Part shown: one piece after another, positions 2,829 through 62,882 of the stretch
Position numbering within the stretch: the stretch's first letter is position 1
Layout of the letters: each line of letters begins with the position of its first letter
Assembly: GCA_016927115.1 (NCBI GenBank)
Contig: JAFGNH010000170.1
Span: 7,541-71,540 of the forward strand
DNA from: Anaerolineales bacterium
Lineage (GTDB): Bacteria; Chloroflexota; Anaerolineae; Anaerolineales; E44-bin32
Length of the DNA: 64,000 nt
Direction of reading: 5' to 3'
Made by a program: the position numbers and the translations under genes
The notes under the pieces: generated by a model
Databases searched by the model: none
The model's input: the letters and a program-made list of their open reading frames with translations, nothing else
Told to the model about the DNA's origin: nothing

Positions 2829-5800
2829 ATGCAAATAAAACCCTTCCCGAAAAAACTCAGCAACCTCAAGGACCGCTTCAGAGGCCGGCGAGCCTTCATC
2901 CTGGGCAATGGGCCCAGCCTGACCGACCTGGATCTTTCCCACCTGGAGAATGAGTATACCTTCGGCGTGAACAGCATCTTCTACCTGTTTGAAGAAATCG
3001 GATTCAAACCATCTTTCTATGTCGTGGAAGACACGCTTGTGGCAGAAGACCGTGCTGCCGAGATTAATGAGCTCGACGGAATGGTCAAAATTTTCGGGAC
3101 GTATCTAAATTACTGCATAAACGACAGTAAAAATACTTTATGGGCGAACGTTCTTTTTAATTACGAAAACTATTCCGGTTTTCCCCACTTCTCGAGAGAT
3201 GCCTCCCAATGCCTCTGGGTGGGCGGCACCGTATCCTATGTCTGCATGCAGCTCGCCTATATGATGGGTTTTGATCCTGTTTACCTGATCGGCTTCGACC
3301 ACTCATATAACATACCTGACGATGCAGATATCGAAGGCACCATCATCACTTCAACTTCTCAGGATCCCAACCATTTCCACCCCGAATACTTCGGCAAAGG
3401 AAAACGATGGCATCTGCCCAGAGTTGACCGCATGCAGCTGTCTTACCTTAAAGCAAAAAAGGTCTTTGAACAGGATGGCAGGCAGATCGTCAATGCTACG
3501 GCCGGCGGAATGCTTGAGGTCTTCCCCCGTATCGCGTACGCCGCTATTTTTAAGGACGACGAAACGCGCAGCGGTAAGGATCAGAAAACAGCTGGAAAGC
3601 CCTCGAAAAAAGCAGCGGAAACCCCGCCTCCTGATCTCTCCGTTATCGTCTGTACCTACAACAACCATGTTTCTCTGGTAAACACCCTCGAAAGCCTCTA
3701 CCAGCAGAGCCTCTCACCTGACCGGTACGAAGTGCTGGTAGTGGATAATAATTCCGATGACCAGACAAAAGCTATATCAACGTCCTTCCCCCGTTGTAAA
3801 TATGTATTTGAGGAGAAACAGGGACTTGCCCAGGCACGAAACACGGGCATCGCTGAAGCAACCGGCCGCATAATCGCCTTTATCGATGATGATGCGGAAG
3901 CTGATTTCGAATGGCTCAGCAGAATTCTTGCCGCTTTTGAAAAAAACGAAAACATTTGGGCCGCGGGCGGGAAAGCCCTGCCGATCTGGGACGCAGAAAA
4001 GCCTGCCTGGCTTACCGAAACCTATTACCGTTCCCTGAGCCTGCTGGACTGGGGTGAAAATATCCGGCCGCTGGCCTGGCCGGAAAGGATCATCGGGACA
4101 AATTGCGCATTTCGTAAAGCAGTCTTCGAGGAAATCGGACGCTTCCAGACAGACCTTGGACGGGTCGGTTCTGTGCTGCTCGGTAATGAGGATACAGAAA
4201 TCCAGGAACGAATCCACGAAACCGGGCACCAGGTTCTCTACGTGCCTGATGCAATCGTTCACCACCACGTACCTGCAGATCGAATGACAGAGGCATATCT
4301 CCAGAAGCGGGATGAAGGGCACAGAATCTCGCAGCAGATCCTGCAGCTGCGCACAGAGGGCAAAGAAGCAGAAGCAAAAAAGATGGCGGAGAATTATATA
4401 CTCCAGCAGCAGCTTAAGGAACATGAAGCTACTATCAACCGCACCCTTCCTCAGTCGAACCTCAGACTGGCAACCTACAAGGATATCCATCGTGGGCAGC
4501 GCTGTGTGATCATCGGAAACGGACCCAGTCTGAACGACATGGATCTCTCCTTCCTGAAAAACGAAATTACCTTCGGTACCAATCGGATCTATCTGGGTTT
4601 CGAGCGCTTCGGTTTTACACCGGATTACTACCTTTCCATTAATCCGCTTGTGATCGAACAGAGTACAGAGGAAATCCTGGCCGTTCCCGCGCCAAAATTC
4701 CTCAGCCTGCATGGGATCAAACATATCCCTGAAGATCGCGAGGATGTAATGTACCTCCAGAGTGTGGACAGCCCGATTTTTTCTCGTGATCCTCGCTCAG
4801 GAATCTGGGAAGGATATACCGTTACCTATGCAGCGCTTCAGCTTGCCTACTATATGGGATTCTCCGAGATTTACCTGATTGGCTGTGATCACAGCTTCGC
4901 CACGACCGGCCCTGCCAATGCCGAAATCACCTCACAGGGAAAAGACCCGAATCATTTTGATTCTTCCTATTTCGGCAAGGGAACACGCTGGCATCTGCCC
5001 GACCTGGTTAACTCCGAGATGGCATACGGCCTGGCGAGGATGGTGTATGAGGCGGAAGGACGGCACGTATACGATGCAACGCTGAATGGAAAATTGAAGG
5101 TATTTCCGAAAGTGGATTATCGTGAATTCTTCCTCGATTCCCCCCCGGATAAAGAAATTCCTGCAAAACTTCAAACAGGTGAAACCATACAAGGGTCTCC
5201 GATCCTGGTCAGCGCCCTGGTATCCACATATAACGATGAGAAGCTGCTGAGAGCCTGCCTGGATGATCTTGAAAATCAGACTATCGCTGATCGAATGGAA
5301 ATCATTGTGATCGACAGCGGTTCCGAGCAGAATGAAGCTGCCATCGTTGCGGATTTCCAGGAACGGTACGCAAATATCCTGTATATCCGCACAGAGCGTG
5401 AGAGCCTGTACCAGGCGTGGAACCGCGGCATTCTGAAAGCCCGTGGCCGGTATATCACCAACGCAAATACTGACGACAGTCACCACCCGGAAGCGCTGGA
5501 AAAACTGGTCGCCGCACTGGAAACACATCCGGAAGCAGATCTGGCATATGCCGACTGCCAGTGGAGCGCCAGGCCGAATGATTCCTTCAACTCAGCCGAC
5601 ACTCTGCGTGACATCCATTATCCAGCCTTCCACCCCGCCCTGAACATGCTTTACTGCCCTCTCGGCCCTCATCCTGTCTGGCGCAGAAAAACATTTGAAA
5701 AGATCGGCCTGTTTGATGCACGCTTCAAAGCAGCCGGTGATTACGAATTCCTGCTTCGCTTTACCGCTGCCGGACTGAATGCAGTTCATGTACCCGAATT

Positions 5801-8800
5801 ACTGAGCGTTTTCTATCAGAACACCAGCGGGCTGACACTCGGTGCCAATGTGTCCGAAGAAGAGAACATGCGCATCCTGAACCGCTACCGCTCCTCTACC
5901 CCTATCCAATCGATCTGCCGGGTCACACCTGGCGATAAAACCAGCGAAGCGCTGGCATGGACTGCACTCGGAAATCAGGCCATCCGTTACCAGGTCCCCT
6001 GGCTTGATGAACCTGTCTCAGACCCGAACTATGCTGCTTACTGCTACCTTAAAGCAATCGAAACAGAGCCCATCATACCAGCGCTGAACAACCTGATCGC
6101 TGTGCTGGGCGCCATGGGGAACTGGGATCAGTGTGAAGCTCTTCTGGCCCAGCTTCCACCCGGAGAAATGCCCGAAATGCGACGTACAGTGACACAACGC
6201 GAGGTGCTGCAGCTGCTGCCTGTCGACATCGAACCCGCTGTGCAGCCGCTTTCCTGTCAAGTGGAACAACCGGAGCCTGCAGTAAGACCGCACAGTTCTC
6301 CGTCCAGCAGTTCAGCTCCCGAGGGATTCAACGTTATCAGCTACGCCAGCGGCAACCTGGGTATCGGTGTAACCGCCCGCAATGTCATCCAGCTTCTGCT
6401 TGACCACGGGTATCCTGTTTCCATCCTCGACATCGATCCCGGATTCGGCCGCGGCGGGAAAGACCTGCGCTTCCAGATGCATACCGTCCCCAATCCGGAA
6501 GATCTGCCTCACTCGATCAACCTCTTCATTCTCCCGCCCGGGGATCTCAGCGCTGTTCTGCAGCAGGCAGGAAGCCGCTTCTCCATGCAGCAGCGGTTGA
6601 ACGCCGCCTTCAGTATGTGGGAACTCCCTCGACTTCCCAGGGATTGGATTCCGACCCTTGAAGCAATGGATGTATTGATCGCGGAATCCGCCTTCATCGA
6701 GCATGCATTCAGTTTCAATCTCTCCGGTGTACACACAATCGCCGCCGACCATCCGCTCTATCTGCCGGATCGAATTCAGCCCAATCGTGCCCGGTTCGGC
6801 CTTCCTGAGGATGGCTGCCTGTTCATTACCAGCTTTGAACCATTCAGTGATCCCCAGCGCAAAAATCCGATGGCGGTGGTGCAGGCATTCGAAATGGCTT
6901 TCAAGCAAGAAAATAACACTCATCTGATCCTCAAGCTGAATAATGCCCAGCATGAAGGATCGTTCCATCCACTGGTTGAAGCGCTCCAGAAGCGCTGTCT
7001 GGCAAACCCTGACATCCATATCCTTAGCGAGACACTCACATATCGGGAAGTGCTGGAGTTATATGCCAGTTGTGACAGCTTTGTCTCGCTCCACCGTGCT
7101 GAAGGGCTCGGCCTGGGCCCCATGGAAGCGATGGCTCTCGGAAAACCTGTCATCGCTACCGGATGGTCGGGGAATTTGAGCTATATGAACCATACCAATG
7201 CCTGTTTGGTCGGGTATCGGCTCATCCCGGTTGATGGCACGATTCCGGCTTACAACCGGGAACGACTGGGTAGTGGAGCTGTGTGGGCTGACCCTGACCC
7301 GGCAGAAGCAGCTGCCTGGATGCGCCGCCTTGCCGAAAATCCCGAACTCCGAAGCACGATCGGCGGGAAGGCACAGCAAGCGATCCGGAACCACCACAAA
7401 AAAGCTGAACAAGCGTTGTTTATCGAGGAACTGCATGCCATCTGGCGGCAAAAACAGCTGTTTACGAATTTCCAACCGGTCAGCAGCTTCCATACAGAAT
7501 CATCAGTACAAAAAGCTGCAGATCTTAAAGATGCATCTGTAGATATCGTCATCCCTGTCTACGGACAGGCCGACCTGCTCAAGCGCTGTGTGAACAGCGT
7601 GCTGGAAACGACAGAAAAAGCACACCTGATCCTGGTCGATGACTGCAGTCCGGACAGTGAAATTCAGGAAGTTTTCTCCACCTGGGAAAACAACCCGCGC
7701 GTCACACTGGCTCGTACGCTTCAGAACTCCGGCTTTATCGGGTCTACACGACTGGGGGCAGGCATCGGTAACGCGCCTTTCATCCTGTTTCTCAACTCCG
7801 ACACAGAGGCCCCGGAAGCCGGATGGCTGGAGGCCCTTATCCCTGAAGAACCGGATATCGCCGTCACCGGTGCAAAACTGCTGTACCCGCCCGACGCGCC
7901 CGAGCCTTTTGCCGGAACGATCCAGCATGCCGGTGTAGCCCGAAATAACCTTGGCGTTCCGTACCACCCATTCATCGGCCAGCCCGGAACTATCCCGGAA
8001 GCATCGCTGGCAAAAGATATCAACGCGATAACCGGAGCCTGCTTCCTTGTTCGTCGTGAAGTCTGGGAACGGCTGGGAGGCTGGAATCCCGCTTTTGGAC
8101 GTGGTGTGTATGAGGATGTTGATTTCTGCTGGAGAGCTCGTTCACAGGGCTTCCGTGTCCGTTATAAGCCGGGTGCTGTGCTGTATCACCATGAAAGCGC
8201 CAGTCGGAGCGAGAATGGCCGACATTCCCTTAACGAACATATGTCCGCGAACCTGTCTACACTTCTGGAAAGCTGGCCGGGTATTACTTCCGATGAAGCG
8301 CTCTTTTACGCTCCGGAAGTCATCTCAGGCTGGCGACAGGCGGAACAACTGCTGCAGCGTGCACAGAGAGAGCTTTCTGAAGGAAAATTCCAGGCTGCAG
8401 TGCAGACCATGCAGTTAGCTGTGAAGGCAGCACCAAATCAGCCTGAAGTCCTGATTGGCTATGCACAGCTTCTCCTCCAGCAAAACAAGCACAAACCGGC
8501 CCTCGAGTCCCTTTATGCTGCGGTAGCCAATGCTCCCACACACTGGAGCGCACGGTTCCTGCTGATGGATACCCTCATCAACACACACAACGCTGCTGAA
8601 GCCTGGCAGCAAAGCCAGATCCTGCTGCACTATTTCCCCGAAAACGAGGAAATAAAACAGCGCAGAAGGCAGATCCTGTCCATGGACCCCACCCTGGTGT
8701 CTCCGAGCAGCACATCCCGTGCAGAACAACTGCTCGAAAAGCTCCTGCAGTCAGAAGATATGGTTGCCCTGCTGGAAGAACATAGAGAGGAATTGGATGG

Positions 8801-9410
8801 AACATTCCTCAGCCTTGTCCAGGAGTATGTGAATACAGCTGAAAAACAGGGTCATTTCGAAGTAGCCGCAGCCATGACAAACCTTATGGTTTATGTTGAG
8901 CAAGTATTGGCTTCCAGCTCTTCCGGTCTGGAAAAACTCAATCCGGATCAGATTCTCAATTATCTGCTCGATGCAGCAGACCCGGTGCAGGCACTCGTTG
9001 ATACAGAGCCATTCTTTACCGATGCTCTCCTCGACCATATCGAAGAGCAGGCTTTCCACTCCGCAACAAGCGGGAACAAGGGGATGTCTGCCGGCTACCA
9101 TGAACTCGCTGATTATGTCCGTGATGTCCTGCAGAAAACGAACGGAAGGGGAAGCCTCCCCGATGCAGAAATCTTGCTGCAGGAAATCCTTGCCGCTGAG
9201 GACATCCTTACTGTTCTGCAGAAGAATGAACACAGGTTGACACCCGCACTTCTGCACCTTGTTCAGGACAACATCCATGAGGCAGAAGCCCATGGCATGG
9301 AGGAAGTTGCCCGGGCACTCGAACATCTCGAAACATACCTGCAGCATCTTCTCGTTCCAGCCGCGCTGTCGGCTGCAGATAATGCCGAAATGACAAAAGA
9401 AGAAGACTGA
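2829..9410 (+). CDS. giant multi-domain glycosyltransferase (2 Maf/DUF115-like + 3 GT2 + 1 GT4 + TPR + C-terminal repeats), 2193 aa
   Basis: A single uninterrupted ORF. Two GNGPSL...GGTV/GYTV..QLAY.MGF..YLIG.DHS modules each carry DPNHF..YFGKG.RWHLP. Three GT2 signatures are present (VIVCTYNN..DDDAE; LVSTYND..NTDD; VIPVYG..LVDDCSPD..NSDTE). One GT4 EX7E motif is present (EGLGLGPME..GKPVIAT). See the domain sub-features. Confidence 0.85.
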   Translation: MQIKPFPKKLSNLKDRFRGRRAFILGNGPSLTDLDLSHLENEYTFGVNSIFYLFEEIGFKPSFYVVEDTLVAEDRAAEINELDGMVKIFGTYLNYCINDSKNTLWANVLFNYENYSGFPHFSRDASQCLWVGGTVSYVCMQLAYMMGFDPVYLIGFDHSYNIPDDADIEGTIITSTSQDPNHFHPEYFGKGKRWHLPRVDRMQLSYLKAKKVFEQDGRQIVNATAGGMLEVFPRIAYAAIFKDDETRSGKDQKTAGKPSKKAAETPPPDLSVIVCTYNNHVSLVNTLESLYQQSLSPDRYEVLVVDNNSDDQTKAISTSFPRCKYVFEEKQGLAQARNTGIAEATGRIIAFIDDDAEADFEWLSRILAAFEKNENIWAAGGKALPIWDAEKPAWLTETYYRSLSLLDWGENIRPLAWPERIIGTNCAFRKAVFEEIGRFQTDLGRVGSVLLGNEDTEIQERIHETGHQVLYVPDAIVHHHVPADRMTEAYLQKRDEGHRISQQILQLRTEGKEAEAKKMAENYILQQQLKEHEATINRTLPQSNLRLATYKDIHRGQRCVIIGNGPSLNDMDLSFLKNEITFGTNRIYLGFERFGFTPDYYLSINPLVIEQSTEEILAVPAPKFLSLHGIKHIPEDREDVMYLQSVDSPIFSRDPRSGIWEGYTVTYAALQLAYYMGFSEIYLIGCDHSFATTGPANAEITSQGKDPNHFDSSYFGKGTRWHLPDLVNSEMAYGLARMVYEAEGRHVYDATLNGKLKVFPKVDYREFFLDSPPDKEIPAKLQTGETIQGSPILVSALVSTYNDEKLLRACLDDLENQTIADRMEIIVIDSGSEQNEAAIVADFQERYANILYIRTERESLYQAWNRGILKARGRYITNANTDDSHHPEALEKLVAALETHPEADLAYADCQWSARPNDSFNSADTLRDIHYPAFHPALNMLYCPLGPHPVWRRKTFEKIGLFDARFKAAGDYEFLLRFTAAGLNAVHVPELLSVFYQNTSGLTLGANVSEEENMRILNRYRSSTPIQSICRVTPGDKTSEALAWTALGNQAIRYQVPWLDEPVSDPNYAAYCYLKAIETEPIIPALNNLIAVLGAMGNWDQCEALLAQLPPGEMPEMRRTVTQREVLQLLPVDIEPAVQPLSCQVEQPEPAVRPHSSPSSSSAPEGFNVISYASGNLGIGVTARNVIQLLLDHGYPVSILDIDPGFGRGGKDLRFQMHTVPNPEDLPHSINLFILPPGDLSAVLQQAGSRFSMQQRLNAAFSMWELPRLPRDWIPTLEAMDVLIAESAFIEHAFSFNLSGVHTIAADHPLYLPDRIQPNRARFGLPEDGCLFITSFEPFSDPQRKNPMAVVQAFEMAFKQENNTHLILKLNNAQHEGSFHPLVEALQKRCLANPDIHILSETLTYREVLELYASCDSFVSLHRAEGLGLGPMEAMALGKPVIATGWSGNLSYMNHTNACLVGYRLIPVDGTIPAYNRERLGSGAVWADPDPAEAAAWMRRLAENPELRSTIGGKAQQAIRNHHKKAEQALFIEELHAIWRQKQLFTNFQPVSSFHTESSVQKAADLKDASVDIVIPVYGQADLLKRCVNSVLETTEKAHLILVDDCSPDSEIQEVFSTWENNPRVTLARTLQNSGFIGSTRLGAGIGNAPFILFLNSDTEAPEAGWLEALIPEEPDIAVTGAKLLYPPDAPEPFAGTIQHAGVARNNLGVPYHPFIGQPGTIPEASLAKDINAITGACFLVRREVWERLGGWNPAFGRGVYEDVDFCWRARSQGFRVRYKPGAVLYHHESASRSENGRHSLNEHMSANLSTLLESWPGITSDEALFYAPEVISGWRQAEQLLQRAQRELSEGKFQAAVQTMQLAVKAAPNQPEVLIGYAQLLLQQNKHKPALESLYAAVANAPTHWSARFLLMDTLINTHNAAEAWQQSQILLHYFPENEEIKQRRRQILSMDPTLVSPSSTSRAEQLLEKLLQSEDMVALLEEHREELDGTFLSLVQEYVNTAEKQGHFEVAAAMTNLMVYVEQVLASSSSGLEKLNPDQILNYLLDAADPVQALVDTEPFFTDALLDHIEEQAFHSATSGNKGMSAGYHELADYVRDVLQKTNGRGSLPDAEILLQEILAAEDILTVLQKNEHRLTPALLHLVQDNIHEAEAHGMEEVARALEHLETYLQHLLVPAALSAADNAEMTKEED
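2880..3550 (+). other. domain: Maf/DUF115 (MptE-like) or GT42-like nonulosonic-acid-transferase-type module, copy 1
   Basis: RAFILGNGPSLTDLDLSHL..FGVN...GGTVSYVCMQLAYMMGFDPVYLIGFDHSY...QDPNHFHPEYFGKGKRWHLP. Confidence 0.55.
3636..4300 (+). other. domain: GT2 (GT-A fold) glycosyltransferase, copy 1
   Basis: LSVIVCTYNNHVSLVNTLESLYQQS..VLVVDNNSDDQT..GLAQARNTGIAEATGRIIAFIDDDAEAD. Confidence 0.7.
4465..5132 (+). other. domain: Maf/DUF115-like module, copy 2
   Basis: RCVIIGNGPSLNDMDLSFL..FGTN...GYTVTYAALQLAYYMGFSEIYLIGCDHSF...KDPNHFDSSYFGKGTRWHLP. It is colinear with copy 1. Confidence 0.55.
5199..5830 (+). other. domain: GT2 glycosyltransferase, copy 2
   Basis: ILVSALVSTYNDEKLLRACLDDLENQT..IIVIDSGSEQNE..LYQAWNRGILKARGRYITNANTDD. 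Confidence 0.65.
6325..7445 (+). other. domain: GT4/GT1-type (GT-B fold) glycosyltransferase
   Basis: FNVISYASGNLGIGVTARN... then SLHRAEGLGLGPMEAMALGKPVIATGWSGNLSYM (EX7E motif). Confidence 0.65.
7539..8210 (+). other. domain: GT2 glycosyltransferase, copy 3
   Basis: VDIVIPVYGQADLLKRCVNSVLETT..LILVDDCSPD..NSGFIGSTRLG..FLNSDTEA..ITGACFLVRREVWERLGGW..YEDVDFCWRARSQGF. Confidence 0.7.
8381..8650 (+). other. domain: TPR-like repeats
   Basis: GKFQAAVQTMQLAVKAAPNQPEVLIGYAQLLLQQNKHKPALESLYAAVANAPTHWSARFLLMDTLI.. Confidence 0.5.
8721..9407 (+). repeat. three tandem ~73-aa helical repeats at the C-terminus of the giant protein (starts near 8721, 8943, 9162)
   Basis: AEQLLEKLLQSEDMVALLEEH..FLSLVQEYV..; PDQILNYLLDAADPVQALVDT..LLDHIEEQA..; AEILLQEILAAEDILTVLQKN..LLHLVQDNI... 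They share the pattern x-[ED]-x-[IL]L-x2-[IL]L-x2-[ED]D/P-x3-[AV]L. Confidence 0.5.
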
Positions 9411-9778
9411 GAAATCCGTGCAAAATAAAAAGCGAGTGGCAGGAATGCCTGTTGACACAAACGGGCCTTGAAAATAATCCCGTCTGGATCCTCTCGCATG
9501 CCTGAAAGAGCAGCAGCAGGTGCCCGGATTTTCGACCAATTCGGAGATGGAAAATGTGCCTCAACCTGACGATAAATCACCCTGATTCAACTGACTGAGA
9601 ACACGCTTGATAAAAGCAGCACTGGAGTATCTGACACGGGCCAGGAAAACTGACCCGGCAAACCTGGAAACCTTTCAAGTATCCGAATGGTTTCTGCACA
9701 GTTGCACAGGTTTCTACGGGGCAGGCTGACTGACACGATAAACATCAATTTTTATCATGTTTCACCTATCCTTTAGGG

Positions 9779-9838
9779 TGCGTTTACGTTTCTTTCAGCA
9801 CCCCTTTACAGACCGTTCAGCAATTGGCTGTTAGTCTT
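9779..9838 (+). promoter_or_regulatory. conserved upstream element, copy 2, 74 nt before the 9913 start codon
   Basis: See 839..898. The architecture is identical: a 32-nt block, N20, then TTAGTCTT. Confidence 0.4.
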
Positions 9839-28505: not shown

Positions 28506-28588
28506 CTTGATTAAAAGCTTAAGTGAAGGCTTGAGTAAGGGCTTGAGTGAGGGCTTGATTAAAGGCTTGAGTGAAAGCTTGAGTAAAA
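28505..28588 (+). repeat. 7 x 12-bp tandem repeat (consensus GCTTGAKTRARR), ending 4 nt before the next start codon
   Basis: The units are ccttgattaaaa, gcttaagtgaag, gcttgagtaagg, gcttgagtgagg, gcttgattaaag, gcttgagtgaaa and gcttgagtaaaa. Confidence 0.9.
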
Positions 28589-46127: not shown

Positions 46128-46134
46128 CCTTCAG

Positions 46135-46449
46135 CTACACCTTCCACTCTTGCGTACTGGACTGTGGTTCATCCTGCTTCAGAGCCGCCAGCTGCTTGAA
46201 GATGACATCCAATGTACCATCCGAAATCAGCCAGTTTATCGCATACAGGACAAATCCGAGGATCAATGTTACCGATCCTGCACGCAGCACTACCGCTTTC
46301 CAGCTGCATCCAGCCATCAATGAAAAAACTACTGTCAGTACAAGGACCACCACAACCAGGATCTTTGAAATCGTAAAACTGGTTTCAAGAAGGAGAATGG
46401 GAAATGTCCCTTCCTTCCCTTGCGGTTCCTCTTTCGGTTTCTTACTCAT
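46135..46449 (-). CDS. small two-pass membrane protein of unknown function (occupies the slot between flhF and fliA)
   Basis: 104 aa with two hydrophobic helices (ISKILVVVVLVLTVVFSLMAG; VTLILGFVLYAINWLI). It is tightly packed, 7 nt before fliA and 11 nt after flhF. Confidence 0.55.
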   Translation of the reverse strand: MSKKPKEEPQGKEGTFPILLLETSFTISKILVVVVLVLTVVFSLMAGCSWKAVVLRAGSVTLILGFVLYAINWLISDGTLDVIFKQLAALKQDEPQSSTQEWKV

Positions 46450-46460
46450 CTACACTCCCT

Positions 46461-49748: not shown

Positions 49749-50852
49749 TCACATGCTCATTTGTGACGTATAAGCAGCTGTTTGTATCGATGCTTTTTGT
49801 CCAGGACGCCGTGCCTTCAACTTGTAAACCTGGGCCAGGATTTCTGCGATGGCCATATAAAACTCGGGTGGTATCTGTTGATCGACTTCTACAGCTGCAT
49901 ACAGGGCTCTCGCCAGCGGGACATTCTGGATGACAGGAATATTCTTTTCTGTGGCCAGATCACGGATCCTCTCAGCCACCTTATAAGCGCCTTTCGCCAG
50001 CACAACGGGAGCCTTCATTTTTTCAGCTTCATATCCGAGTGCGATCGCCAGATGGGTGGGGTTTACTATCACCACGTCAGCCTTGGCAACATTGGAAAAC
50101 ATGCGCTGTCGGGCAAAAGCCATCTGCTTGGATCGGATCCGGCTCTTCAGGAACATATCGCCTTCAGACCGCTTCCTGTCTTCTTTGACTTCCTCTTTTG
50201 TCATCCGTAATGATTTTTTCGTCTGCCATAGCTGGTATCCATAGTCTGCCGCAGCCAGCAGCAGGTATGCGCCGCCTACCCGGAAAAACAATGCCAGCAC
50301 CATGGATCCCCATTCTTCCACAGCTGCTCTCATATCCATCTGGATCAGGTTGAGCAGCCGGTGCTGTTCGGACTGGAGAAATCGGTAGACTATAAAGCCG
50401 ACTATTCCCAGCTTCAGAATGCCCTTCAGCAGTTCCACCAATCCCATCCCCGAGAAAATCCGTTTAAAACCATCAATTGGATTGATCTTTTTCAAATCAA
50501 AACCCAGTCGTTTGGTAGCAAACATCAACTTGGTCTGAGCAACCGTAATACCCACACCACAAACAAGAAAAGCAAGGATGATCAGGGCCATCTGCGGCAA
50601 AAGCATCATTATCTCTTCCCTGATAAGTGCGCCCAGCCATTGGCTGGTTGCCTCAGCAGAGGGCAGTTTTATAAGAACATCCTTCATCGCCACACCAAGA
50701 TTTACAATCAGCAACCTGACCGGATTCCCCATCAACACTGCAGCCAGGAGCAGGCCTGCAGCGGCATTTAGCTCACGGCTGTATGCTACCTGGCCCTGCT
50801 CTCTTGCTTCCTGCAGCCTTCGTGGGGTTGGGGCTTCTGTTCGGTCAGCCAT
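49749..50852 (-). CDS. flhB: flagellar export switch protein FlhB
   Basis: MADRTEAPTPRRLQEAREQGQVAYSRELN..., LRMTKEEVKEDRKRSEGD, and the autocleavage site VIVNPTHLAIAL. Confidence 0.95.
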   Translation of the reverse strand: MADRTEAPTPRRLQEAREQGQVAYSRELNAAAGLLLAAVLMGNPVRLLIVNLGVAMKDVLIKLPSAEATSQWLGALIREEIMMLLPQMALIILAFLVCGVGITVAQTKLMFATKRLGFDLKKINPIDGFKRIFSGMGLVELLKGILKLGIVGFIVYRFLQSEQHRLLNLIQMDMRAAVEEWGSMVLALFFRVGGAYLLLAAADYGYQLWQTKKSLRMTKEEVKEDRKRSEGDMFLKSRIRSKQMAFARQRMFSNVAKADVVIVNPTHLAIALGYEAEKMKAPVVLAKGAYKVAERIRDLATEKNIPVIQNVPLARALYAAVEVDQQIPPEFYMAIAEILAQVYKLKARRPGQKASIQTAAYTSQMSM

Positions 50853-50858
50853 TTATCC

Positions 50859-51620
50859 CTATCCTGCCAGTAAATTCATCATACGCTCCCCCATCCTCTC
50901 AAACAGATTGAAAATGAAGGGATAAAGCACATTTAATGCAATCGCCAGGCCAACGAGCGCCAGACCTGCTTTCAGGGGAATCGCCAGAAAAAATACCTGA
51001 ACCTGCGGGGCAACCTTGGCCAACAATCCGAAAGCAATTTCCACCAACAGCATCGCACCCAGGATCGGTAACGACATATGGATCCCGGTAGATACCAACT
51101 GAGCACTGGTAAGCATCAACTTCCCCATTGAGAATCCAGTAATCGAGCCATTGATGGGGAATATTTCAAAGGTCCTCTGAGTCGCAAGCAGCACCTGAAA
51201 ATGACCATCCATCAGCAGAAAAATCATAATTGCAAGAATAGACAGAATGCTGCTGTAAGAAGTACCCTGTTCCTGGAAAGCCGGATTAAGCATCTGGGCT
51301 GATCCAAACGCACTGGAGGTACTCATGACTTCCCCGGCAATCTGCAGTGCCCCGAAAGTGAGTGCTGCACCAAAACCAGCCAATGTTCCGGTCAGGATTT
51401 CTTTTCCAATCGCAAGGCTGAAACCCAGCAGCGGCATTGCTGCCGAGTCTGCCGGCAGTACGTTCCAGGGCAGCAGCACAAACGTCAGGATCAAACCAAA
51501 TCCTATGCGCACCATGTTCGGGACCAGACGCCCGGCAAGAACCGGGACATGGACCAGGACAGCCAGGATACGGGTGAGGGCCAGAAAAAAAAGCTGCGCC
51601 TGTGCAACTGATATGGTCAA
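50859..51620 (-). CDS. fliR: flagellar export apparatus protein FliR
   Basis: A hydrophobic 253-aa protein. The TTG at 51620 follows AGGACGAGG. The 60 codons upstream in the ORF track are Arg-rich and non-hydrophobic, so I discount them. Confidence 0.8.
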   Translation of the reverse strand: MTISVAQAQLFFLALTRILAVLVHVPVLAGRLVPNMVRIGFGLILTFVLLPWNVLPADSAAMPLLGFSLAIGKEILTGTLAGFGAALTFGALQIAGEVMSTSSAFGSAQMLNPAFQEQGTSYSSILSILAIMIFLLMDGHFQVLLATQRTFEIFPINGSITGFSMGKLMLTSAQLVSTGIHMSLPILGAMLLVEIAFGLLAKVAPQVQVFFLAIPLKAGLALVGLAIALNVLYPFIFNLFERMGERMMNLLAG

Positions 51621-51772
51621 AGTGATCCTCGTCCTTTCAGAATAAGGATACCTTTGCCCTTTCTTTCCGTCAGTAAAACATGGGTGAAGCACAGGTAAAA
51701 TTTGCGTTAATCCCCCTTCAAAAGGCTCAACTTCTGATGTCTCTGTCCGATAACCTTTCTTTCTGTTGCAAG

Positions 51773-51867
51773 TACTCCCCCTGCTCAATCTCCTCTGCAC
51801 TGCAGCTGCACAAGCCGGCAGCAGGCTTTGCCGGGCAATAAAAAACCGCTTTACTCCCCCTGCTCAA
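51773..51867 (-). repeat. 16-nt perfect direct repeat (TACTCCCCCTGCTCAA on +) at 51773..51788 and 51852..51867
   Basis: Read directly. The second copy overlaps the stop codon of the receiver gene. A CCGGCA/TGCCGG hairpin lies between the copies. Confidence 0.85.
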
Positions 51868-52262
51868 GCCAGGTCCGCCAGCCTTTTTAGCAGGACGACG
51901 GGATCGATCGGCTTCTTCAAAAAACCAGACACATTCAGTGGTGCTACTTGTTTGATCACTTCCTTGAATCCAAGTGCAGACATGAGGATAAAGTGCGGTT
52001 GGTGCATCGAAGAGTCCTCGCGTATTTTGCGGATCAGCTGTAGTCCGTTAATACCGGGGAGTAAAATCTCCAGGAGAACCGCGAAATACACTGTATTCCG
52101 CAGAAACACTTCAGCTCTTGCCGGATCCCCGGGGCATTCAACGCGATACCCTTCACGTTCAAGAATCATGTGCAGAAGATCCCTTTGAACCGCATCCGTT
52201 TCCAGAATGAGGATTTCTTTACCGGGCTTCCCGGAAGTCTGGCTTGCTGCAGTATCAGGCAA
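51864..52262 (-). CDS. CheY-like receiver domain protein with Glu at the phospho-acceptor position (pseudo-receiver candidate)
   Basis: Hand alignment to CheY: LVVDDFS/ILETDAV (D12->E, D13->T), VISDWNMP/VLLEILLP (D57->E), LMVTA/ILMSA (T87->S), VVKPF/LKKPI (K109 kept). Confidence 0.75.
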   Translation of the reverse strand: MPDTAASQTSGKPGKEILILETDAVQRDLLHMILEREGYRVECPGDPARAEVFLRNTVYFAVLLEILLPGINGLQLIRKIREDSSMHQPHFILMSALGFKEVIKQVAPLNVSGFLKKPIDPVVLLKRLADLA

Positions 52263-53106
52263 CAGCGGCTCCTATCTTCATCGCTGCATTGCACTCCTTT
52301 TTAAGATTCTCCAGCATCTCCGGATTCAGATTCAGAATCTCCAGTGAACTTTCATGAACAAAACGTCCCTCCAGAAAATCTGAACGAACAGAATCATTAG
52401 GGCTGAACGCATTGGCCAGGTTCACAACTGCAGAAATGGTATGGTCTTTTTTAGCTTGATCAGGCCGATGATGTGATTCGATCGCATCAACCAGGGACAG
52501 CGGAAACCGCCAGTGCTTGGCAATCAGCCCGCCTGCCTCAGCATGATGTATGCTGAACAATCTCTCCTCAATCTCCCAGAGAGGCTGTTTACTTGTCTGG
52601 AGAAGTTTCATGAGATGTTCTCTGTCTTTCAGAAGGTACTGGTCAAGCAGAAGTTTTCCAATATCATGAAGCAGGCCAGCCACATAGACTTCATCAGGGT
52701 TAGGAACTATCAGCGCTTGAGCAAGCCAGAGTGCGATTGTACCCGTGGAAACCGCATGCCGCATCATATCACCGCCACCCAGACTGTATCCCCGGAGCGA
52801 TCCGGACATCGAATCAGCTGCACCGACACCGAGAGTAATCAACTTTATCCGTTTCATCCCCAACCGTACAGCAGCTTCATTGATCGACCCACAGGTGCGG
52901 CCATATCCAAGTAAAGCTGAATTGGCAACTTTTAGAACTTCCGCTGTCAGCACCTGATCCATGCTGATGAAATTCGCAATGTTGCCTATAGACGTTTCCG
53001 GATCCTCAACCGCTCTGAGCACCCTGGTCACACTGTTGGGCATCGGCTTCAACCGCCTCGCAGCTTCAAATATTCGTGTTTTAAGTGGATTGACTGATGA
53101 AGACAT
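52255..53106 (-). CDS. HDOD domain protein
   Basis: IANFISMDQVLTAEVLKVANSALLGYGRTCGSINEAAVRLGMKRI...AGLLHDIGKLLLDQYL...HHAEAGGLIAKHW. Its stop overlaps the receiver start by 8 nt. Confidence 0.8.
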   Translation of the reverse strand: MSSSVNPLKTRIFEAARRLKPMPNSVTRVLRAVEDPETSIGNIANFISMDQVLTAEVLKVANSALLGYGRTCGSINEAAVRLGMKRIKLITLGVGAADSMSGSLRGYSLGGGDMMRHAVSTGTIALWLAQALIVPNPDEVYVAGLLHDIGKLLLDQYLLKDREHLMKLLQTSKQPLWEIEERLFSIHHAEAGGLIAKHWRFPLSLVDAIESHHRPDQAKKDHTISAVVNLANAFSPNDSVRSDFLEGRFVHESSLEILNLNPEMLENLKKECNAAMKIGAAVA

Positions 53107-53120
53107 TCGAACACCTGAAT

Positions 53121-53390
53121 CTAATAGATTAATTCCGGAAGACTGGTCAGCAGATCCCGGGTAAAAGAAAGCAGCTGCTGCCCCATCCAGGACCCCAGGA
53201 TGGCAAAGATTAATCCCACACCGAGTATTTTTGGCACAAAGTTCAGGGTCGTTTCACTGATCTGAGTAGCTGCCTGGAACAGACTTACCAGGCTACCGAT
53301 GACAAGGCTCGCAAGCAGAAATGGGCCGGCGAGAATAAGCGCAGTCATCAGCGCGTTCTGCCCCAGGTTCAGTACATATGTTTCGGTCAC
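53121..53390 (-). CDS. fliQ: flagellar export apparatus protein FliQ
   Basis: 89 aa. LILAGPFLLASLVIGSLVSLFQAATQISETTLNFVPKI. Confidence 0.9.
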   Translation of the reverse strand: MTETYVLNLGQNALMTALILAGPFLLASLVIGSLVSLFQAATQISETTLNFVPKILGVGLIFAILGSWMGQQLLSFTRDLLTSLPELIY

Positions 53391-53425: not shown

Positions 53426-54184
53426 TTACTGGAAACTGGCCACCAACGACTGGGTGATCAGGTACCAGCCATCCACCATCACAAACAGAAGAATCTTGAA
53501 CGGAAGGGAAATCAGCGATGGCGGAAGCATCATCATTCCCATTGAAAGCAGAATACTTGAAACCACAAGGTCGATTAATAAGAATGGCACATAGATGACA
53601 AATCCCATGAGAAATGCTGCTCGAAGTTCACTGATCACAAAAGCCGGCAGCAGTGCAATAGTGGGAATATCCTCTTCAACTGCCGGTGCATCCAGGTCCT
53701 GAATCGCCAGGAACAACTCGAGATCTTTCTCCCTGGTATGGGTAAACATAAACTCCCGCAGTGGGTCCATTGCCCGCTCTAACGCGGTGTCCTGGTCAAT
53801 TTCCTCATTCAGATACGGCTGGAAAGCTTCCTGATCCATTTGATTATAGACCGGCATCATGACAAAGAAAGTGAGGAGAAGCGAGAGACCCAGGATGACC
53901 TGCGTTGGTGGCGCGTTCGGGGTGCCAATGGCCGTGCGGACCATCGACAGCACTATCACAATCCGGGTGAAGGACGTTGTCAACACCAGGATTGATGGCG
54001 CCAGCGAGAGCACCGTTACCAATACAAGCAGCTGAACGCCGGAACTCACCTGTTCAGGTCCATCCGGTGTATCAATATTCAGCGAAAAGCCACTCGCTGT
54101 CGATTCTGGTACTGCTGCACAGGAGGATAAAGCTATCCCGAGCAACCCCAGTACCAGAAGAGTGATCCAGAATTTCTTTTTCAT
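53426..54184 (-). CDS. fliP: flagellar export apparatus protein FliP
   Basis: LAPSILVLTTSFTRIVIVLSMVRTAIGTPNAPPTQVILGLSLLLTFFVM...FVISELRAAFLMGF...PFLLIDLVVSSILLSMGMMMLPP. Confidence 0.95.
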   Translation of the reverse strand: MKKKFWITLLVLGLLGIALSSCAAVPESTASGFSLNIDTPDGPEQVSSGVQLLVLVTVLSLAPSILVLTTSFTRIVIVLSMVRTAIGTPNAPPTQVILGLSLLLTFFVMMPVYNQMDQEAFQPYLNEEIDQDTALERAMDPLREFMFTHTREKDLELFLAIQDLDAPAVEEDIPTIALLPAFVISELRAAFLMGFVIYVPFLLIDLVVSSILLSMGMMMLPPSLISLPFKILLFVMVDGWYLITQSLVASFQ

Positions 54185-58758: not shown

Positions 58759-58916
58759 ATCTATTCCTGAAAATTCAATTTTGTTCTGTGCGAACCCACT
58801 TCAGTAGCATAAATCGGAAAGATCAACAGGATCCGACTCCGGTTTCACTTTAACATGACACACAGTGCTTGTCCGTAAATCGCCTGTTAATGTGCGTAAA
58901 AACAACGCAAAAACGA

Positions 58917-60521
58917 TCAGGTGATAATCGGAAGACTGACGATAAACTCTGTGCCCTGCCCGGTTTCACTCCGCACCTGGATTTTGCCCCCAAGCTGGCG
59001 AACGATCCTGTGGCACACCGAGAGTCCCAGCCCTGGTCCTTCACCTGGATCTTTTGTGGTATAGAAAGGTTCAAAAATACGGGAGAGTTTCTCTTCCGAT
59101 ATACCGATCCCATCATCCTGTACGGTTACCACAACATAGTTACCCTGCTGCACAGAAGTAATCCGGATACGTCCCTGCATCTGGTTTAACGCATCACGTG
59201 CGTTGAACAGCAGATTCAGCCACATCGCCTGCAGATGATTCGGGCTCGCCTGGAGCAGGGGAAGCTCAGGAGAAAGGAAAAGATCCAAATCAATCTCTTC
59301 CGAGGCCAGACGGTGTTTGATAAGATGAACTGCTGAACGGATCGATTCATTGATATCGGTCGGTTTGAAATTATATGAATCCTGTTGCGCGAGATCAAGC
59401 AGCGCCTGGACCACACCAAGTGCCCGATCCCCTGCCTGTGCAATCAGATCAATCGATTCCAGTTTGGAATCATCGGGTTCCAGTTCACGCTGCAAGAGCT
59501 GGCTGTTGGCAATAATTGCAACCAGGGGATTGTTTATTTCATGAGCAACTCCTGCCGCCAGCTGCTCCACAGCAGCCAGTTTTGCTGTGCGAGCCAGGGA
59601 TTCTATCAGACGGTTCTTCTCTGTCGCATCCTGTTCAAGTACAACAGCCTCAACCACCTGGCCATGATCATCCCGTAGAGGATAGGTGCTGATCTCCCAT
59701 TCCCGGGGATCGCCATCCTGTTCCCAATTCCTGCCCTGGCGAAACGTCATGATTCCCGCCGTTAATGATTCACCGATTCTGCATCCGGGGCATGGTTCTG
59801 ATCGATGATAGAGGGCTTCATAACAACGCAATCCCAACAGGCGATATGCCTCACTGTTACCCCGAAGCGCTGTGAAAGTATTGATCGCCACAAGGCGATA
59901 ATCCCGATCAATACAGTAGAATGGGAATGGCAGGTTATCAAACACATTGGCCAGAATCGAACGCTCACGCCTGATTTCCCAGCAGCGAGCTTCCAGATCT
60001 GCATTTAAAACTGTCTGTTGATGGATCTTTTGCCCGGAGATCACAACTGAGGCCAGCAGTGGGGCCAGCAGTTCCACGATATTCCGTTTATCCTGCCCGT
60101 CATTTGCCAAAAACGCGCTCCGTACCTCCACGACACCTATGGTCCGGTCCCTCGCTGTAAGTGGAACATACAGACTGGTTTCTGCAGTTGATCGATCGGT
60201 TTTGTTTCCATTCGATCGGTGTACATTTTCCTCTCTCCCTGATTGCTGCTGGATCGTCTCTCCAGACTGCAAACAGGCCGCAACCGGACCTTCTCCCACA
60301 CCAATAAACTCAAATTCAGCTGTGCCTGTATTAGCGTGACGATAAACCTGCAGTGTCTCCTTGTTTTCCTCGGATTGAAGGTATACAACACACATGTCAG
60401 CCCGGAGAAGTTCCGTTATCCCTGCTGCCGTGAGATTTACAGCTTCCACATTGCTGGTTGGCCTGGAAAGTGCCATGGTAATATCTTTAAGTTTGGTTTG
60501 AGTCCTACTATTTTCTGTCAT
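58917..60521 (-). CDS. cytoplasmic sensor histidine kinase (GAF-like + PAS-like + HisKA + HATPase_c)
   Basis: H-box AAGVAHEINNPLVAI, N-box LNLLFNARDA, G-boxes DDGIGI and GPGLGLSVC. There are no TM segments. I prefer the ATG at 60521 (MTENSRTQ..) over 60650. Confidence 0.8.
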   Translation of the reverse strand: MTENSRTQTKLKDITMALSRPTSNVEAVNLTAAGITELLRADMCVVYLQSEENKETLQVYRHANTGTAEFEFIGVGEGPVAACLQSGETIQQQSGREENVHRSNGNKTDRSTAETSLYVPLTARDRTIGVVEVRSAFLANDGQDKRNIVELLAPLLASVVISGQKIHQQTVLNADLEARCWEIRRERSILANVFDNLPFPFYCIDRDYRLVAINTFTALRGNSEAYRLLGLRCYEALYHRSEPCPGCRIGESLTAGIMTFRQGRNWEQDGDPREWEISTYPLRDDHGQVVEAVVLEQDATEKNRLIESLARTAKLAAVEQLAAGVAHEINNPLVAIIANSQLLQRELEPDDSKLESIDLIAQAGDRALGVVQALLDLAQQDSYNFKPTDINESIRSAVHLIKHRLASEEIDLDLFLSPELPLLQASPNHLQAMWLNLLFNARDALNQMQGRIRITSVQQGNYVVVTVQDDGIGISEEKLSRIFEPFYTTKDPGEGPGLGLSVCHRIVRQLGGKIQVRSETGQGTEFIVSLPIIT

Positions 60522-60941
60522 ATCCGCCTGTATCCACAAAGGCCCCCTTGCTCTCTGTTTTCCATTCAACCTGCAGAATGCTTTCTGCGGCCCCTCTCTG
60601 AATAGTTTTCTGGATGGTCGCTTCTTTTTCTGCGCACCCAGGAGAACCACTCATAAAACAGGCACCCTGCTGCCCTTCCCGTCAAACCAGACCATACGAA
60701 GGTCTGCATTTGAAGTATCGGCTGCTTCTGCTGTGACTCAATTGAATCTGAGTAAAAACGGGGTGAATATCCCTGCTGCCATCTATCCAGTCCGAACAGG
60801 AACGGAGCGATCTTGTCGCCAGCATCTCCTATCCCCTCCGCCTGGGCTGTCAAAACATATCACAGAACAGGAACCAAAACTCACCGGGCTGCAGAATGAG
60901 TATTGCTGACTCATGATAATGGCTTTACCTGCATCCTGTTC

Positions 60942-62036: not shown

Positions 62037-62882
62037 TTACTCACTTCCCATCTTTAAGAATGACTCAGTTTCATTAATAAAGATCTGTATCCTATTTGCG
62101 AGTGCGCTGAAATCAGCATGGCTTAATCGCAGTCGTTCCAATGCACTCTCTTCAGGCAGCAGCTCTTCCTCCATATCAGAAGAAAGCTGGTTCATTGCGC
62201 AATCAGCCACATTTACTGCAGCAGCAAGGATCAGGCCTTCCGTCGCATTTTCAGGATTATGATGAAAAGCAATCGCATCCTGAAGTTCTAAGGGTAAATT
62301 CCATTGCTGTGTTATGGCTGCGCCAAGCTCTGCATGGTTAATACCAATCAGCTCCTGCTCCACCAGAATATAGGTTCGATCTCCCATTTTCGCAGTCTGG
62401 ATTGTGTGCTCACACAGATAGGAATCCAGGGCAAGCTTTCCAATATCGCACAACAGCCCAGCAAAATAAGCATCCTCTGCCTTGCGACGGCCAAAGATTT
62501 TTGTCACCCATCTTGCTCCCGCAGCGACTCCAATCGCATGTTTCCACAATTCACCGCGTTCCATATGATATCCATGGAGAGGCCGGTCCATTAGATTCAC
62601 CATCGAGGCTGCCAGGATCAAATTCTCCACGGTCCGGTATCCCAGGTAAACCATCGCTTGTTTCACGGTGGACACCGGGCGTGCCAAACCGTAATAAGCT
62701 GAATTTGCCCAACGCAGGATTAAAATGGTAAGAGCTTCATCCAGAGCGAGTATGTCCGCAATTTCGGAAATATTCGAATCAGGATCCTGGATCAATGTCA
62801 TTGCTCGCTGAGCAACATCCGGCATCGGAGGAAGTTCACCGATTTGTGCGATTAGTTTTTCTTTTGCCAGTTGTACATTCAT
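62037..62882 (-). CDS. HDOD domain protein (second copy in the window)
   Basis: LPPMPDVAQRAMTLIQDPDSNISEIADILALDEALTILILRWANSAYYGL...AGLLCDIGKLALDSYL...NHAELGAAITQQW. The ATG at 62882 is 1 nt after the cheR stop. Confidence 0.8.
   Translation of the reverse strand: MNVQLAKEKLIAQIGELPPMPDVAQRAMTLIQDPDSNISEIADILALDEALTILILRWANSAYYGLARPVSTVKQAMVYLGYRTVENLILAASMVNLMDRPLHGYHMERGELWKHAIGVAAGARWVTKIFGRRKAEDAYFAGLLCDIGKLALDSYLCEHTIQTAKMGDRTYILVEQELIGINHAELGAAITQQWNLPLELQDAIAFHHNPENATEGLILAAAVNVADCAMNQLSSDMEEELLPEESALERLRLSHADFSALANRIQIFINETESFLKMGSE

Follow-up and report, generated by a model that had tools for sequence, protein, structure and literature searches.

In a 64-kb stretch of DNA from an Anaerolineales bacterium (called the window below), the flagellar export-gate genes fliQ and fliR are separated by two genes, one for a stand-alone HDOD protein (HDOD1) and one for a single-domain receiver (REC). 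Comparing this arrangement with related loci, which carry L-numbers here, we found that fliQ-HDOD-REC-fliR appears to be an old, class-wide layout of the examined Anaerolineae flagellar clusters and is typical of the lineage. Regulators that combine a receiver with an HDOD domain, HDOD proteins linked to motility, and receivers lacking the acceptor aspartate are all known already. What is new is a split and order-reversed pair that is fixed between fliQ and fliR throughout a class, has an intact metal site in its HDOD protein, and includes Asp, Glu, and Ala forms of the receiver within one orthologous group.

Gene organization of the HDOD-receiver pair

Every gene between 46 and 64 kb of the window lies on the minus strand, according to its list of open reading frames (ORFs) and Pfam scans. 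Read in that direction, the series starts with a partial cheB, cheR, a second HDOD gene (HDOD2), two CheX genes, and a GAF-PAS-HisKA-HATPase kinase gene, continues with flbD, motA, motB, fliL, fliM, fliN, fliO, fliP, and fliQ, and ends with HDOD1, REC, a 243-nt spacer, fliR, flhB, flhA, and flhF. The features around the pair are as follows.

53426-54184, minus strand: fliP (ORF list and Pfam)
53121-53390, minus strand: fliQ, export gate, 89 aa (Bac_export_3, 3.3e-27), with a 14-nt gap to the HDOD1 start
52255-53106, minus strand: HDOD1, stand-alone, 283 aa (PF08668, 3.6e-51; PF01966, 2.9e-10)
51864-52262, minus strand: REC, single-domain receiver, 132 aa, TTG start (PF00072 Response_reg, 3.3e-16)
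51621-51863, minus strand: REC-fliR spacer, 243 nt (from the sequence)
50859-51620, minus strand: fliR, 253 aa from the TTG at 51620 (Bac_export_1, 6.5e-49), the first gene past the cis-element described below
49749-50852, minus strand: flhB (ORF list and Pfam)

The first-pass annotation of this DNA had placed an HDOD gene and a receiver gene between fliQ and fliR, translationally coupled over 8 nt, and the ORF list and Pfam agree. The HDOD1 stop codon lies at 52255-52257 and the TTG start of REC at 52262-52260, an overlap of 8 nt in different frames. This TTG is preceded, 6 nt upstream, by AGGAG, and orthologues start at the same place; across the related loci, the HDOD and REC genes overlap by as much as 8 nt or stand as much as 25 nt apart. 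The fliR ORF extends to 51800, and the start conserved in relatives is the TTG at 51620, matching orthologues of 253 aa. The accompanying statement that fliP, fliQ, and fliR are almost invariably contiguous was too strong, since the three genes are dispersed in Epsilonproteobacteria.

Distribution of the pair in Anaerolineae

Homologues of HDOD1 number in the hundreds at 40-56% identity and are named Anaerolineaceae, Bellilinea, and Chloroflexi. An exact-sequence look-up of HDOD1 gave no match, although one NCBI protein with 100% identity (P0006) is on record, annotated as belonging to an Anaerolineales MAG. The main layout in related loci is fliP-fliQ-HDOD-REC-(spacer)-fliR-flhB-flhA-flhF, found in L001-L006, L009, L010, L012, L013, and the further context P0149, as well as in the cultured Leptolinea tardivitalis (L039, GCA_001306095.1). 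Eight more metagenome contigs carry it, five in full (L015, L017, L019, L027, and L028) and three up to the contig edge (L016, L026, and L031). Altogether, the same synteny is present in more than 20 independent contigs and is still seen where HDOD identity has fallen to 40-45% and REC identity to about 30%. The G+C content and skew of the pair are the same as those of its flanks, and its divergence tracks that of the adjoining flagellar genes. The pair had at first been taken for an insertion in this genome, a view displaced by the class-wide layout in the synteny survey, with which the base composition agrees.

Three kinds of variant were found. In L010 (Chloroflexi HGW-Chloroflexi-10, 6424-9566), REC and fliR are separated by genes for a 757-aa C11 peptidase and for a 263-aa protein without a domain match, so the REC-fliR junction tolerates insertions. 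Six loci (L018 and L020-L024) read fliP-fliQ-REC-fliR, with no HDOD gene; their receivers retain the acceptor Asp, and the fifth residue after it is Gln, where it is usually Gly or another residue. In L020-L024, the fourth residue after the acceptor, usually Pro, is His or Asp. Finally, L040 (2250-7431) encodes an OmpR-type regulator, a GAF-PAS kinase, a receiver with Ala at the acceptor position, a FliA-like sigma factor, a 95-aa ORF, and FlgN, with no flbD-fliQ, HDOD, or fliR-flhF genes between its regulators in the 7.4 kb covered. From its gene content, L040 looks like a lineage in which these flagellar genes were lost and the regulators kept.

A receiver-pattern scan of named genomes, made with a narrow pattern, returned only two unrelated Desulfovibrio/deltaproteobacterial receivers, and we found no description of an HDOD-receiver pair between fliQ and fliR in the open-access literature. 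Most cultured Chloroflexota are described as nonmotile, and Leptolinea tardivitalis is among the species so described. Its locus L039, of which 20 kb was covered, contains, as part of a flagellar cluster, flbD-fliR-flhBAF-sigma-rod-flgMNK, with the HDOD-REC pair among these genes.

The receiver of the window lacks the phospho-acceptor aspartate

REC matches PF00072 with 59.9 bits (cut-off, 30.2), and its AlphaFold model (pLDDT 80) has the (beta-alpha)5 receiver fold, with Foldseek matches to the generic receivers RR468, PleD, CheY, and DivK at a TM of about 0.8. By phmmer against PleD and a designed REC domain, and by MAFFT against Escherichia coli CheY, the acceptor position D57 (CheY numbering) corresponds to E65 in LLEILLPG, which the model places at the C-terminal end of beta3. 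In the same alignments, D12 corresponds to E21, D13 to T22, T87 to S95, and K109 to K117, and the residue after T22, D23, is invariant and might substitute for D13. Neither the alignments nor the model show an alternative acceptor Asp at the end of beta3. The first-pass annotation had described the same replacements of D57 by Glu and D13 by Thr, with Ser87 and Lys109 kept, and had named another Asp acting as acceptor as one observation that would overturn it; we found none at that position. Compared with a canonical response regulator, then, the protein has E65 for the acceptor in every alignment, and this Glu is invariant in the window's clade. It keeps only the first acid (E21) of the pair after beta1, and it retains the Ser at the end of beta4 (S95) and the Lys after beta5 (K117-P118). 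A receiver fold without the phospho-Asp makes it an aspartate-less receiver (ALR).

The protein is not a CheY equivalog, as no CheY model is among its best 25 NCBIfam matches, and NCBIfam places it in no equivalog, CheY or other; a CheY model with a cut-off of 189 gives the canonical L012 orthologue 60 bits. The only domains found in the pair are HDOD/HD and Response_reg, and neither the PilZ domain of the brake/clutch proteins YcgR/MotI nor the EpsE glycosyltransferase is among them.

Among 5.8 billion proteins, the receiver has only five close homologues, all of which have Glu at the acceptor position. A profile search shows a discrete family of about 95 proteins scoring above 110 bits, after which scores fall to those of generic regulators. 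Residue counts for the family members plus the window protein (n = 96, CheY numbering) are as follows.

Position 57 (acceptor): Asp 87, Glu 7, Ala 2 of 96
Position 12: Glu in 87/96
Position 13: acidic in 70/96; Thr, Ser, or Pro in 9/9 Asp-less members
Position 14: Asp or Glu in 90/96
Position 87: Ser 93, Thr 3 of 96
Position 109: Lys in 96/96

These alignments indicate that Glu at the acceptor position is a derived, minority state and that the acceptor Asp was lost in at least two events, once to Glu and once to Ala. That the acceptor and D13 were lost jointly points to phosphorylation chemistry having truly gone. The earlier conclusion that the receiver cannot be normally phosphorylated stands as to the Glu and the missing D13, with the qualification that this is a derived condition in a family most of whose members (87/96) keep the Asp. 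Glu is the commonest substitution in ALRs (26%), which are enriched with HDOD outputs, and at the acceptor position it mimics phospho-Asp in some regulators but often does not (PMC4395418).

The Glu receiver is under purifying selection and is not decaying. Compared with L001 and L005, its dN is 0.25-0.29 with saturated synonymous sites (dN/dS about 0.09), above the dN of 0.04-0.14 for FliQ/FliR, and 62 of its 132 positions are invariant in the window clade despite that saturation. Its most conserved surface is the alpha4 motif SALGFKEVIKQVA, with the pattern S[AS]LG[FY][KR]E[VI][VI]xQA, in which E101 and Q105 are invariant, suggesting a conserved binding partner. A pattern derived from this motif served to retrieve the metagenome loci, so the motif's presence in them is partly by construction.

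HDOD1 retains a complete metal site

HDOD1 matches PF08668 with 173.9 bits (cut-off, 22.9) over profile positions 2-196 of 196, and its AlphaFold model (pLDDT 80) is all-helical. Its closest solved relative is the Geobacter protein 3HC1, both by sequence (1.2e-26) and as the top Foldseek match (TM 0.77); the top structural matches are all HDOD proteins, namely, 3HC1, SadB 9QZK, 3M1T, 3MEM, 3I7A, MmoQ, and Cj0248. To our knowledge, no substrate is known for any HDOD protein. In 3HC1, two iron ions are coordinated by five His and one Asp (PMC12075610). Aligned to the 3HC1 motifs, the H..HD..H..HH site of HDOD1 is complete (H117, H147, D148, H188, H212, and H213), and the six ligand positions are invariant in an alignment of 47 HDOD1-type sequences. 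By these residues, HDOD1 is assigned to the 3HC1-like type with an intact metal site, and it may sense or hydrolyze a small molecule, as this site would predict. Its best 120 homologues are all stand-alone proteins of about 235-303 aa, and the pair is not a fused REC-HDOD regulator: the two ORFs are in different frames, with HDOD first.

62037-62882, minus strand: HDOD2, stand-alone, starting 1 nt past the cheR stop, with two CheX genes after it

That a second HDOD gene is coupled to cheR at these coordinates had been noted from the sequence and agrees with the ORF list and Pfam. HDOD2 is 33% identical to HDOD1, and its HD motif has become CD, with Cys for His (GLLCDIGK), so that, from its sequence, the metal site is probably altered, unlike that of HDOD1.

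A conserved element before fliR and the neighboring kinase

In a comparison of the window with L001 and L005, conservation over the ~100 nt just ahead of fliR far exceeds that at synonymous coding sites. The cross-lineage core is TTTA[CG]-N6-TTCA[CT]-N6-TTTAC[TG]G[AT], made up of three TTYAC-like direct repeats set 11 bp apart; a -10-like box, TAT[CTG]CT, comes 19 nt later. Four copies are of note in the window.

51670-51699 (repeats) and 51645-51650 (TATCCT), minus strand: cis-element of fliR, TTTAC-N6-TTCAC-N6-TTTACTGA, candidate activator site and promoter
58872-58900, minus strand: copy upstream of flbD, TTTACGCACATTAACAGGCGATTTACGGA, with conserved counterparts in L001 and L005 and a copy in L013
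17935-17964, plus strand: copy upstream of the flgB operon, TTTACCCCCTCTTCATACCGCATTTACTGA, the same three-part element
9784-9812, plus strand: weaker copy, ahead of a TPR-glycosyltransferase gene close to the flagellin genes (motif scan)

A regular-expression scan located the core before fliR not only in the window but also in 19/19 related loci that cover the region (L001, L005, L009, L010, L012, L013, L015, L017, L019-L024, L027, L028, L031, L033, and L039). Its only other matches in 292 kb of related loci, on either strand, are upstream of flbD, and the window holds 5 motif matches where shuffles give an expectation of 0.44. Tandem repeats with 11-bp spacing are typical of OmpR/PhoB-type regulators. 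We infer that the element is a candidate activator site overlapping a promoter, and it is likewise a candidate site for the OmpR-type regulator whose gene adjoins that of the kinase in L039 and L040. On this pattern of conservation, fliR-flhBAF is most likely under its own regulated promoter, and since the element stands before fliR, the HDOD-REC pair probably forms the 3' end of the flbD-fliQ unit. The proposal that embedding the pair in the operon ensures stoichiometric coexpression with the export gate is therefore doubtful, given the element in all 19 loci and the window and the two genes that intervene in L010.

A simple promoter/terminator scan gave nothing meaningful in the REC-fliR spacer and no terminator after REC, the only terminator-like match being inside the fliR coding sequence. 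Rfam gave no match at gathering scores in the whole window and none at E<=1 in the spacer, and RNA folding of the spacer (z-score, -0.46) gave no sign of a structured RNA. The spacer also contains an exact 16-nt direct repeat, TTGAGCAGGGGGAGTA, at 51773-51788 and 51852-51867 (minus strand), with copies 79 nt apart that bracket 63 nt; the first copy overlaps the REC stop codon, and 0.03 such repeats are expected by shuffles. It may stem from a local duplication or a small insertion. As an insertion scar of the pair, the repeat was rejected, because it brackets spacer DNA only and is not conserved in L001 or L005.

58917-60650, minus strand: GAF-PAS-HisKA-HATPase kinase (Pfam), at the head of the flbD-fliQ unit

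The true start of this kinase is probably downstream of 60650. Orthologues occur in L001, L005, L013, L039, and L040, and an OmpR-type regulator adjoins the kinase in L039 and L040. The OmpR-type regulator and the GAF-PAS kinase could possibly be a flagellar master regulator pair in Anaerolineae.

Possible role of the pair and alternative explanations

We tentatively favor, with slightly less than even confidence, the reading of the pair as an accessory signaling module of the Anaerolineae flagellar regulon, that is, a split and order-reversed REC+HDOD combination at the tail of the flbD-fliQ unit with a kinase-linked receiver. In such a module, the two genes of the pair would come last on the flbD-motAB-fliLMNOPQ transcript, with fliR-flhB-flhA-flhF behind its own element. 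Having no output domain, the receiver would act by binding a partner, and the likely contact would be the invariant alpha4-beta5 face (S95, E101, Q105, and K117-P118). Ancestrally it would have been phosphorylatable, most likely by the GAF-PAS kinase, which the same cluster always encodes, and it may have served as an auxiliary branch, a sink, or a feedback arm of the two-component system controlling flagellar genes. In the window sub-clade, where loss of the acceptor Asp (to Glu) coincided with loss of D13, it would work without phosphotransfer, as a fixed-state adaptor, possibly phospho-mimicking, or as a kinase-docking protein. HDOD1, with its full di-metal centre, could supply a small-ligand or redox input or a hydrolytic activity. 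The gene anatomy, its conservation, the residue states, the purifying selection, and the cis-element are direct observations; the link between kinase and receiver, the contact between HDOD and receiver, and an output in flagellar gene expression or assembly rather than torque are all inferred.

Several observations weigh against this signaling module. The six loci without HDOD indicate that the receiver does not strictly depend on an adjacent HDOD gene; with no terminator detectable after REC, transcription could read through into fliR; and the promoter reading of the cis-element is drawn from its conservation pattern. In addition, tblastn with the L039 and L040 proteins found no OmpR-type regulator in the 64-kb window, and in L039 (Leptolinea) and L040, the OmpR-type neighbor is the more obvious partner of the kinase.

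The pair could instead act at the motor, as the first-pass annotation suggested, where the receiver, with or without HDOD, would bind the switch complex or the stator in the way of CheY/Cle proteins as a brake, clutch, or switch, locked in the window's clade so as to give a constitutive bias or an export checkpoint. Cotranscription with motAB, fliL, fliM, fliN, and fliOPQ would suit such a role, as would a single-domain receiver with a conserved alpha4-beta5 face, the surface that CheY uses for FliM, and Bacillus subtilis has cheY in the same operon region. Stand-alone HDOD proteins have also been found to change swimming with unchanged Congo-red phenotypes (PMC11813219). Nevertheless, we consider action at the motor rather unlikely: CheY-specific models are not matched, some lineages lack HDOD, and in L040 the receiver stays beside the kinase and sigma factor, with the flbD-fliQ, HDOD, and fliR-flhF genes all missing from between them. 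The gene persisted through at least two origins of a locked Glu or Ala state, a history that fits a fast switch poorly, although it is compatible with a constitutive brake. The reduced cluster of L040 and the HDOD-less lineages favor a regulatory role, through kinase and gene expression, over a motor brake. It is also conceivable, but doubtful, that the receiver is the functional core and HDOD an independent metal-dependent enzyme or sensor that shares the operon without forming a complex. The fliQ-REC-fliR lineages without HDOD retain the alpha4 motif and the fliR cis-element, L040 retains REC without HDOD, and HDOD2 is coupled to cheR and not to a receiver. However, those HDOD-less loci were found through the alpha4 pattern, so the motif is there partly by construction; where both genes occur, they are always adjacent and usually overlap or lie a few nt apart; and the fusion of REC with HDOD is recurrent, just as Asp-less receivers are enriched with HDOD outputs (PMC4395418).

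Two further explanations concern the origin and fate of the genes. The Glu receiver would be a decaying, functionless remnant if the loss of two active-site acids and an evolution faster than that of FliQ/FliR were signs of disuse, which is very unlikely, as the ORF is intact and its Shine-Dalgarno sequence and coupling are conserved in all clade members, S95, K117, and the alpha4 motif are retained, and the invariant positions and low dN/dS point to constraint. Least probable of all, to a degree that makes it negligible, is a recent arrival of the pair in this genome's fliPQR operon by horizontal transfer or mobile insertion. The exact 16-nt direct repeat flanking 63 nt right after the REC stop, seen in this window only, would fit an insertion, but it brackets the spacer and not the two genes, the G+C content and skew do not depart from the flanks, and distant Anaerolineae share the layout, with a pair whose divergence follows that of the adjoining flagellar genes.

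Returning to the signaling module, a more specific and speculative form, which we regard as unlikely at present, would be a so far undescribed control module peculiar to Chloroflexota: a di-iron HDOD protein senses redox state, O2, NO, or a nucleotide and, through the receiver, feeds back on the kinase/OmpR-type master regulator of the promoters with TTYAC repeats (flgB, flbD, and fliR), the receiver having repeatedly become independent of phosphorylation. If true, the biochemical role of HDOD would be defined, and a single orthologous group would offer a natural Asp/Glu/Ala series.

Comparison with known systems

The link of HDOD proteins to motility, brought up in the first-pass annotation, is in agreement with the literature (PMC11813219 and PMC11004494). 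In Xanthomonas campestris, loss of the REC-HDOD protein GsmR reduces swimming through changed flagellar gene expression, according to Liu et al. 2013 as cited in PMC4114195 and PMC11004494. The pair resembles GsmR in combining a receiver with an HDOD domain, but it consists of two polypeptides with HDOD first and lies inside the flagellar cluster; moreover, GsmR is without the conserved His and has no hydrolase activity (PMC4114195), whereas HDOD1 keeps all six metal ligands. PSPTO_4229 (PMC11813219), Campylobacter Cj0248 (PDB 1VQR), and Pseudomonas SadB (PDB 9QZK, PMC12075610) share the HDOD fold with HDOD1 and have motility or flagellar phenotypes, but unlike HDOD1, none of them lies between fliQ and fliR and none is coupled to a receiver. 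SadB is a protein adaptor that does not need a ligand, and its pocket has lost most His ligands (PMC12075610), while HDOD1 is closer to the di-iron protein 3HC1 of Geobacter.

ChxR-type ALRs, with Glu at the acceptor (PMC4395418), have in common with the window receiver the receiver fold, the kept first acid and Lys, and the lost second acid. Unlike ChxR, the window receiver is single-domain, has no DNA-binding output, and belongs to a family with about 90% Asp, so that a single orthologous group allows the two states to be compared.

In Bacillus subtilis, cheY is embedded in the fla/che operon between fliY and fliZ-fliP. The window receiver is likewise a single-domain receiver gene among switch and export-gate genes in a Firmicute-like flagellar operon, but it is not a CheY equivalog, has another position, is paired with HDOD, and, judging by its residues, is nonphosphorylatable in its clade. 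DivK and phosphate-sink CheY are auxiliary single-domain receivers of branched two-component systems. Our receiver resembles them as a small receiver encoded with a kinase, which adjoins a DNA-binding regulator in at least two related clusters, and differs from a sink CheY in that its Glu and Ala forms cannot be sinks.

HDOD is among the commonest signaling domains without a mechanism, and the fixed placing of an HDOD protein with an intact metal site beside a dedicated receiver in the flagellar clusters of a whole class narrows its likely partners and output to a few candidates. Likewise, the Asp, Glu, and Ala forms of one orthologue in the same context are a natural experiment on receivers after the loss of phosphorylation. 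Together with the kinase/OmpR-type pair of some clusters, the repeat element outlines a possible flagellar regulation in Chloroflexota, where it is unstudied. Current concepts are not overturned, and the organisms are hard to work with.

Other features of the window

Genes for flagellin, together with fliD, fliS, and flgB/C-fliF-fliG-fliI-fliK, are found in the plus-strand half of the window; other genes on the minus strand code for a FliA-type sigma factor, for FliW, and for a second flagellin-like protein. After flhF, related clusters have an ORF of ~100-120 aa without a Pfam match and then a FliA-like sigma gene (L001, 15782-16093; L005, 15817-16122; L039, 15923-16282); the equivalent in the window lies at about 46130-46460. 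No MinD-type FlhG gene was seen in the clusters of L001, L005, L039, or the window. At 28506-28587, the window has a tandem array of 6.8 copies of the 12-nt unit CTTGAGTAAAGG, and at 2829-9410 (plus strand), upstream of the flagellin/glycosyltransferase region, it has an ORF of 2193 aa.

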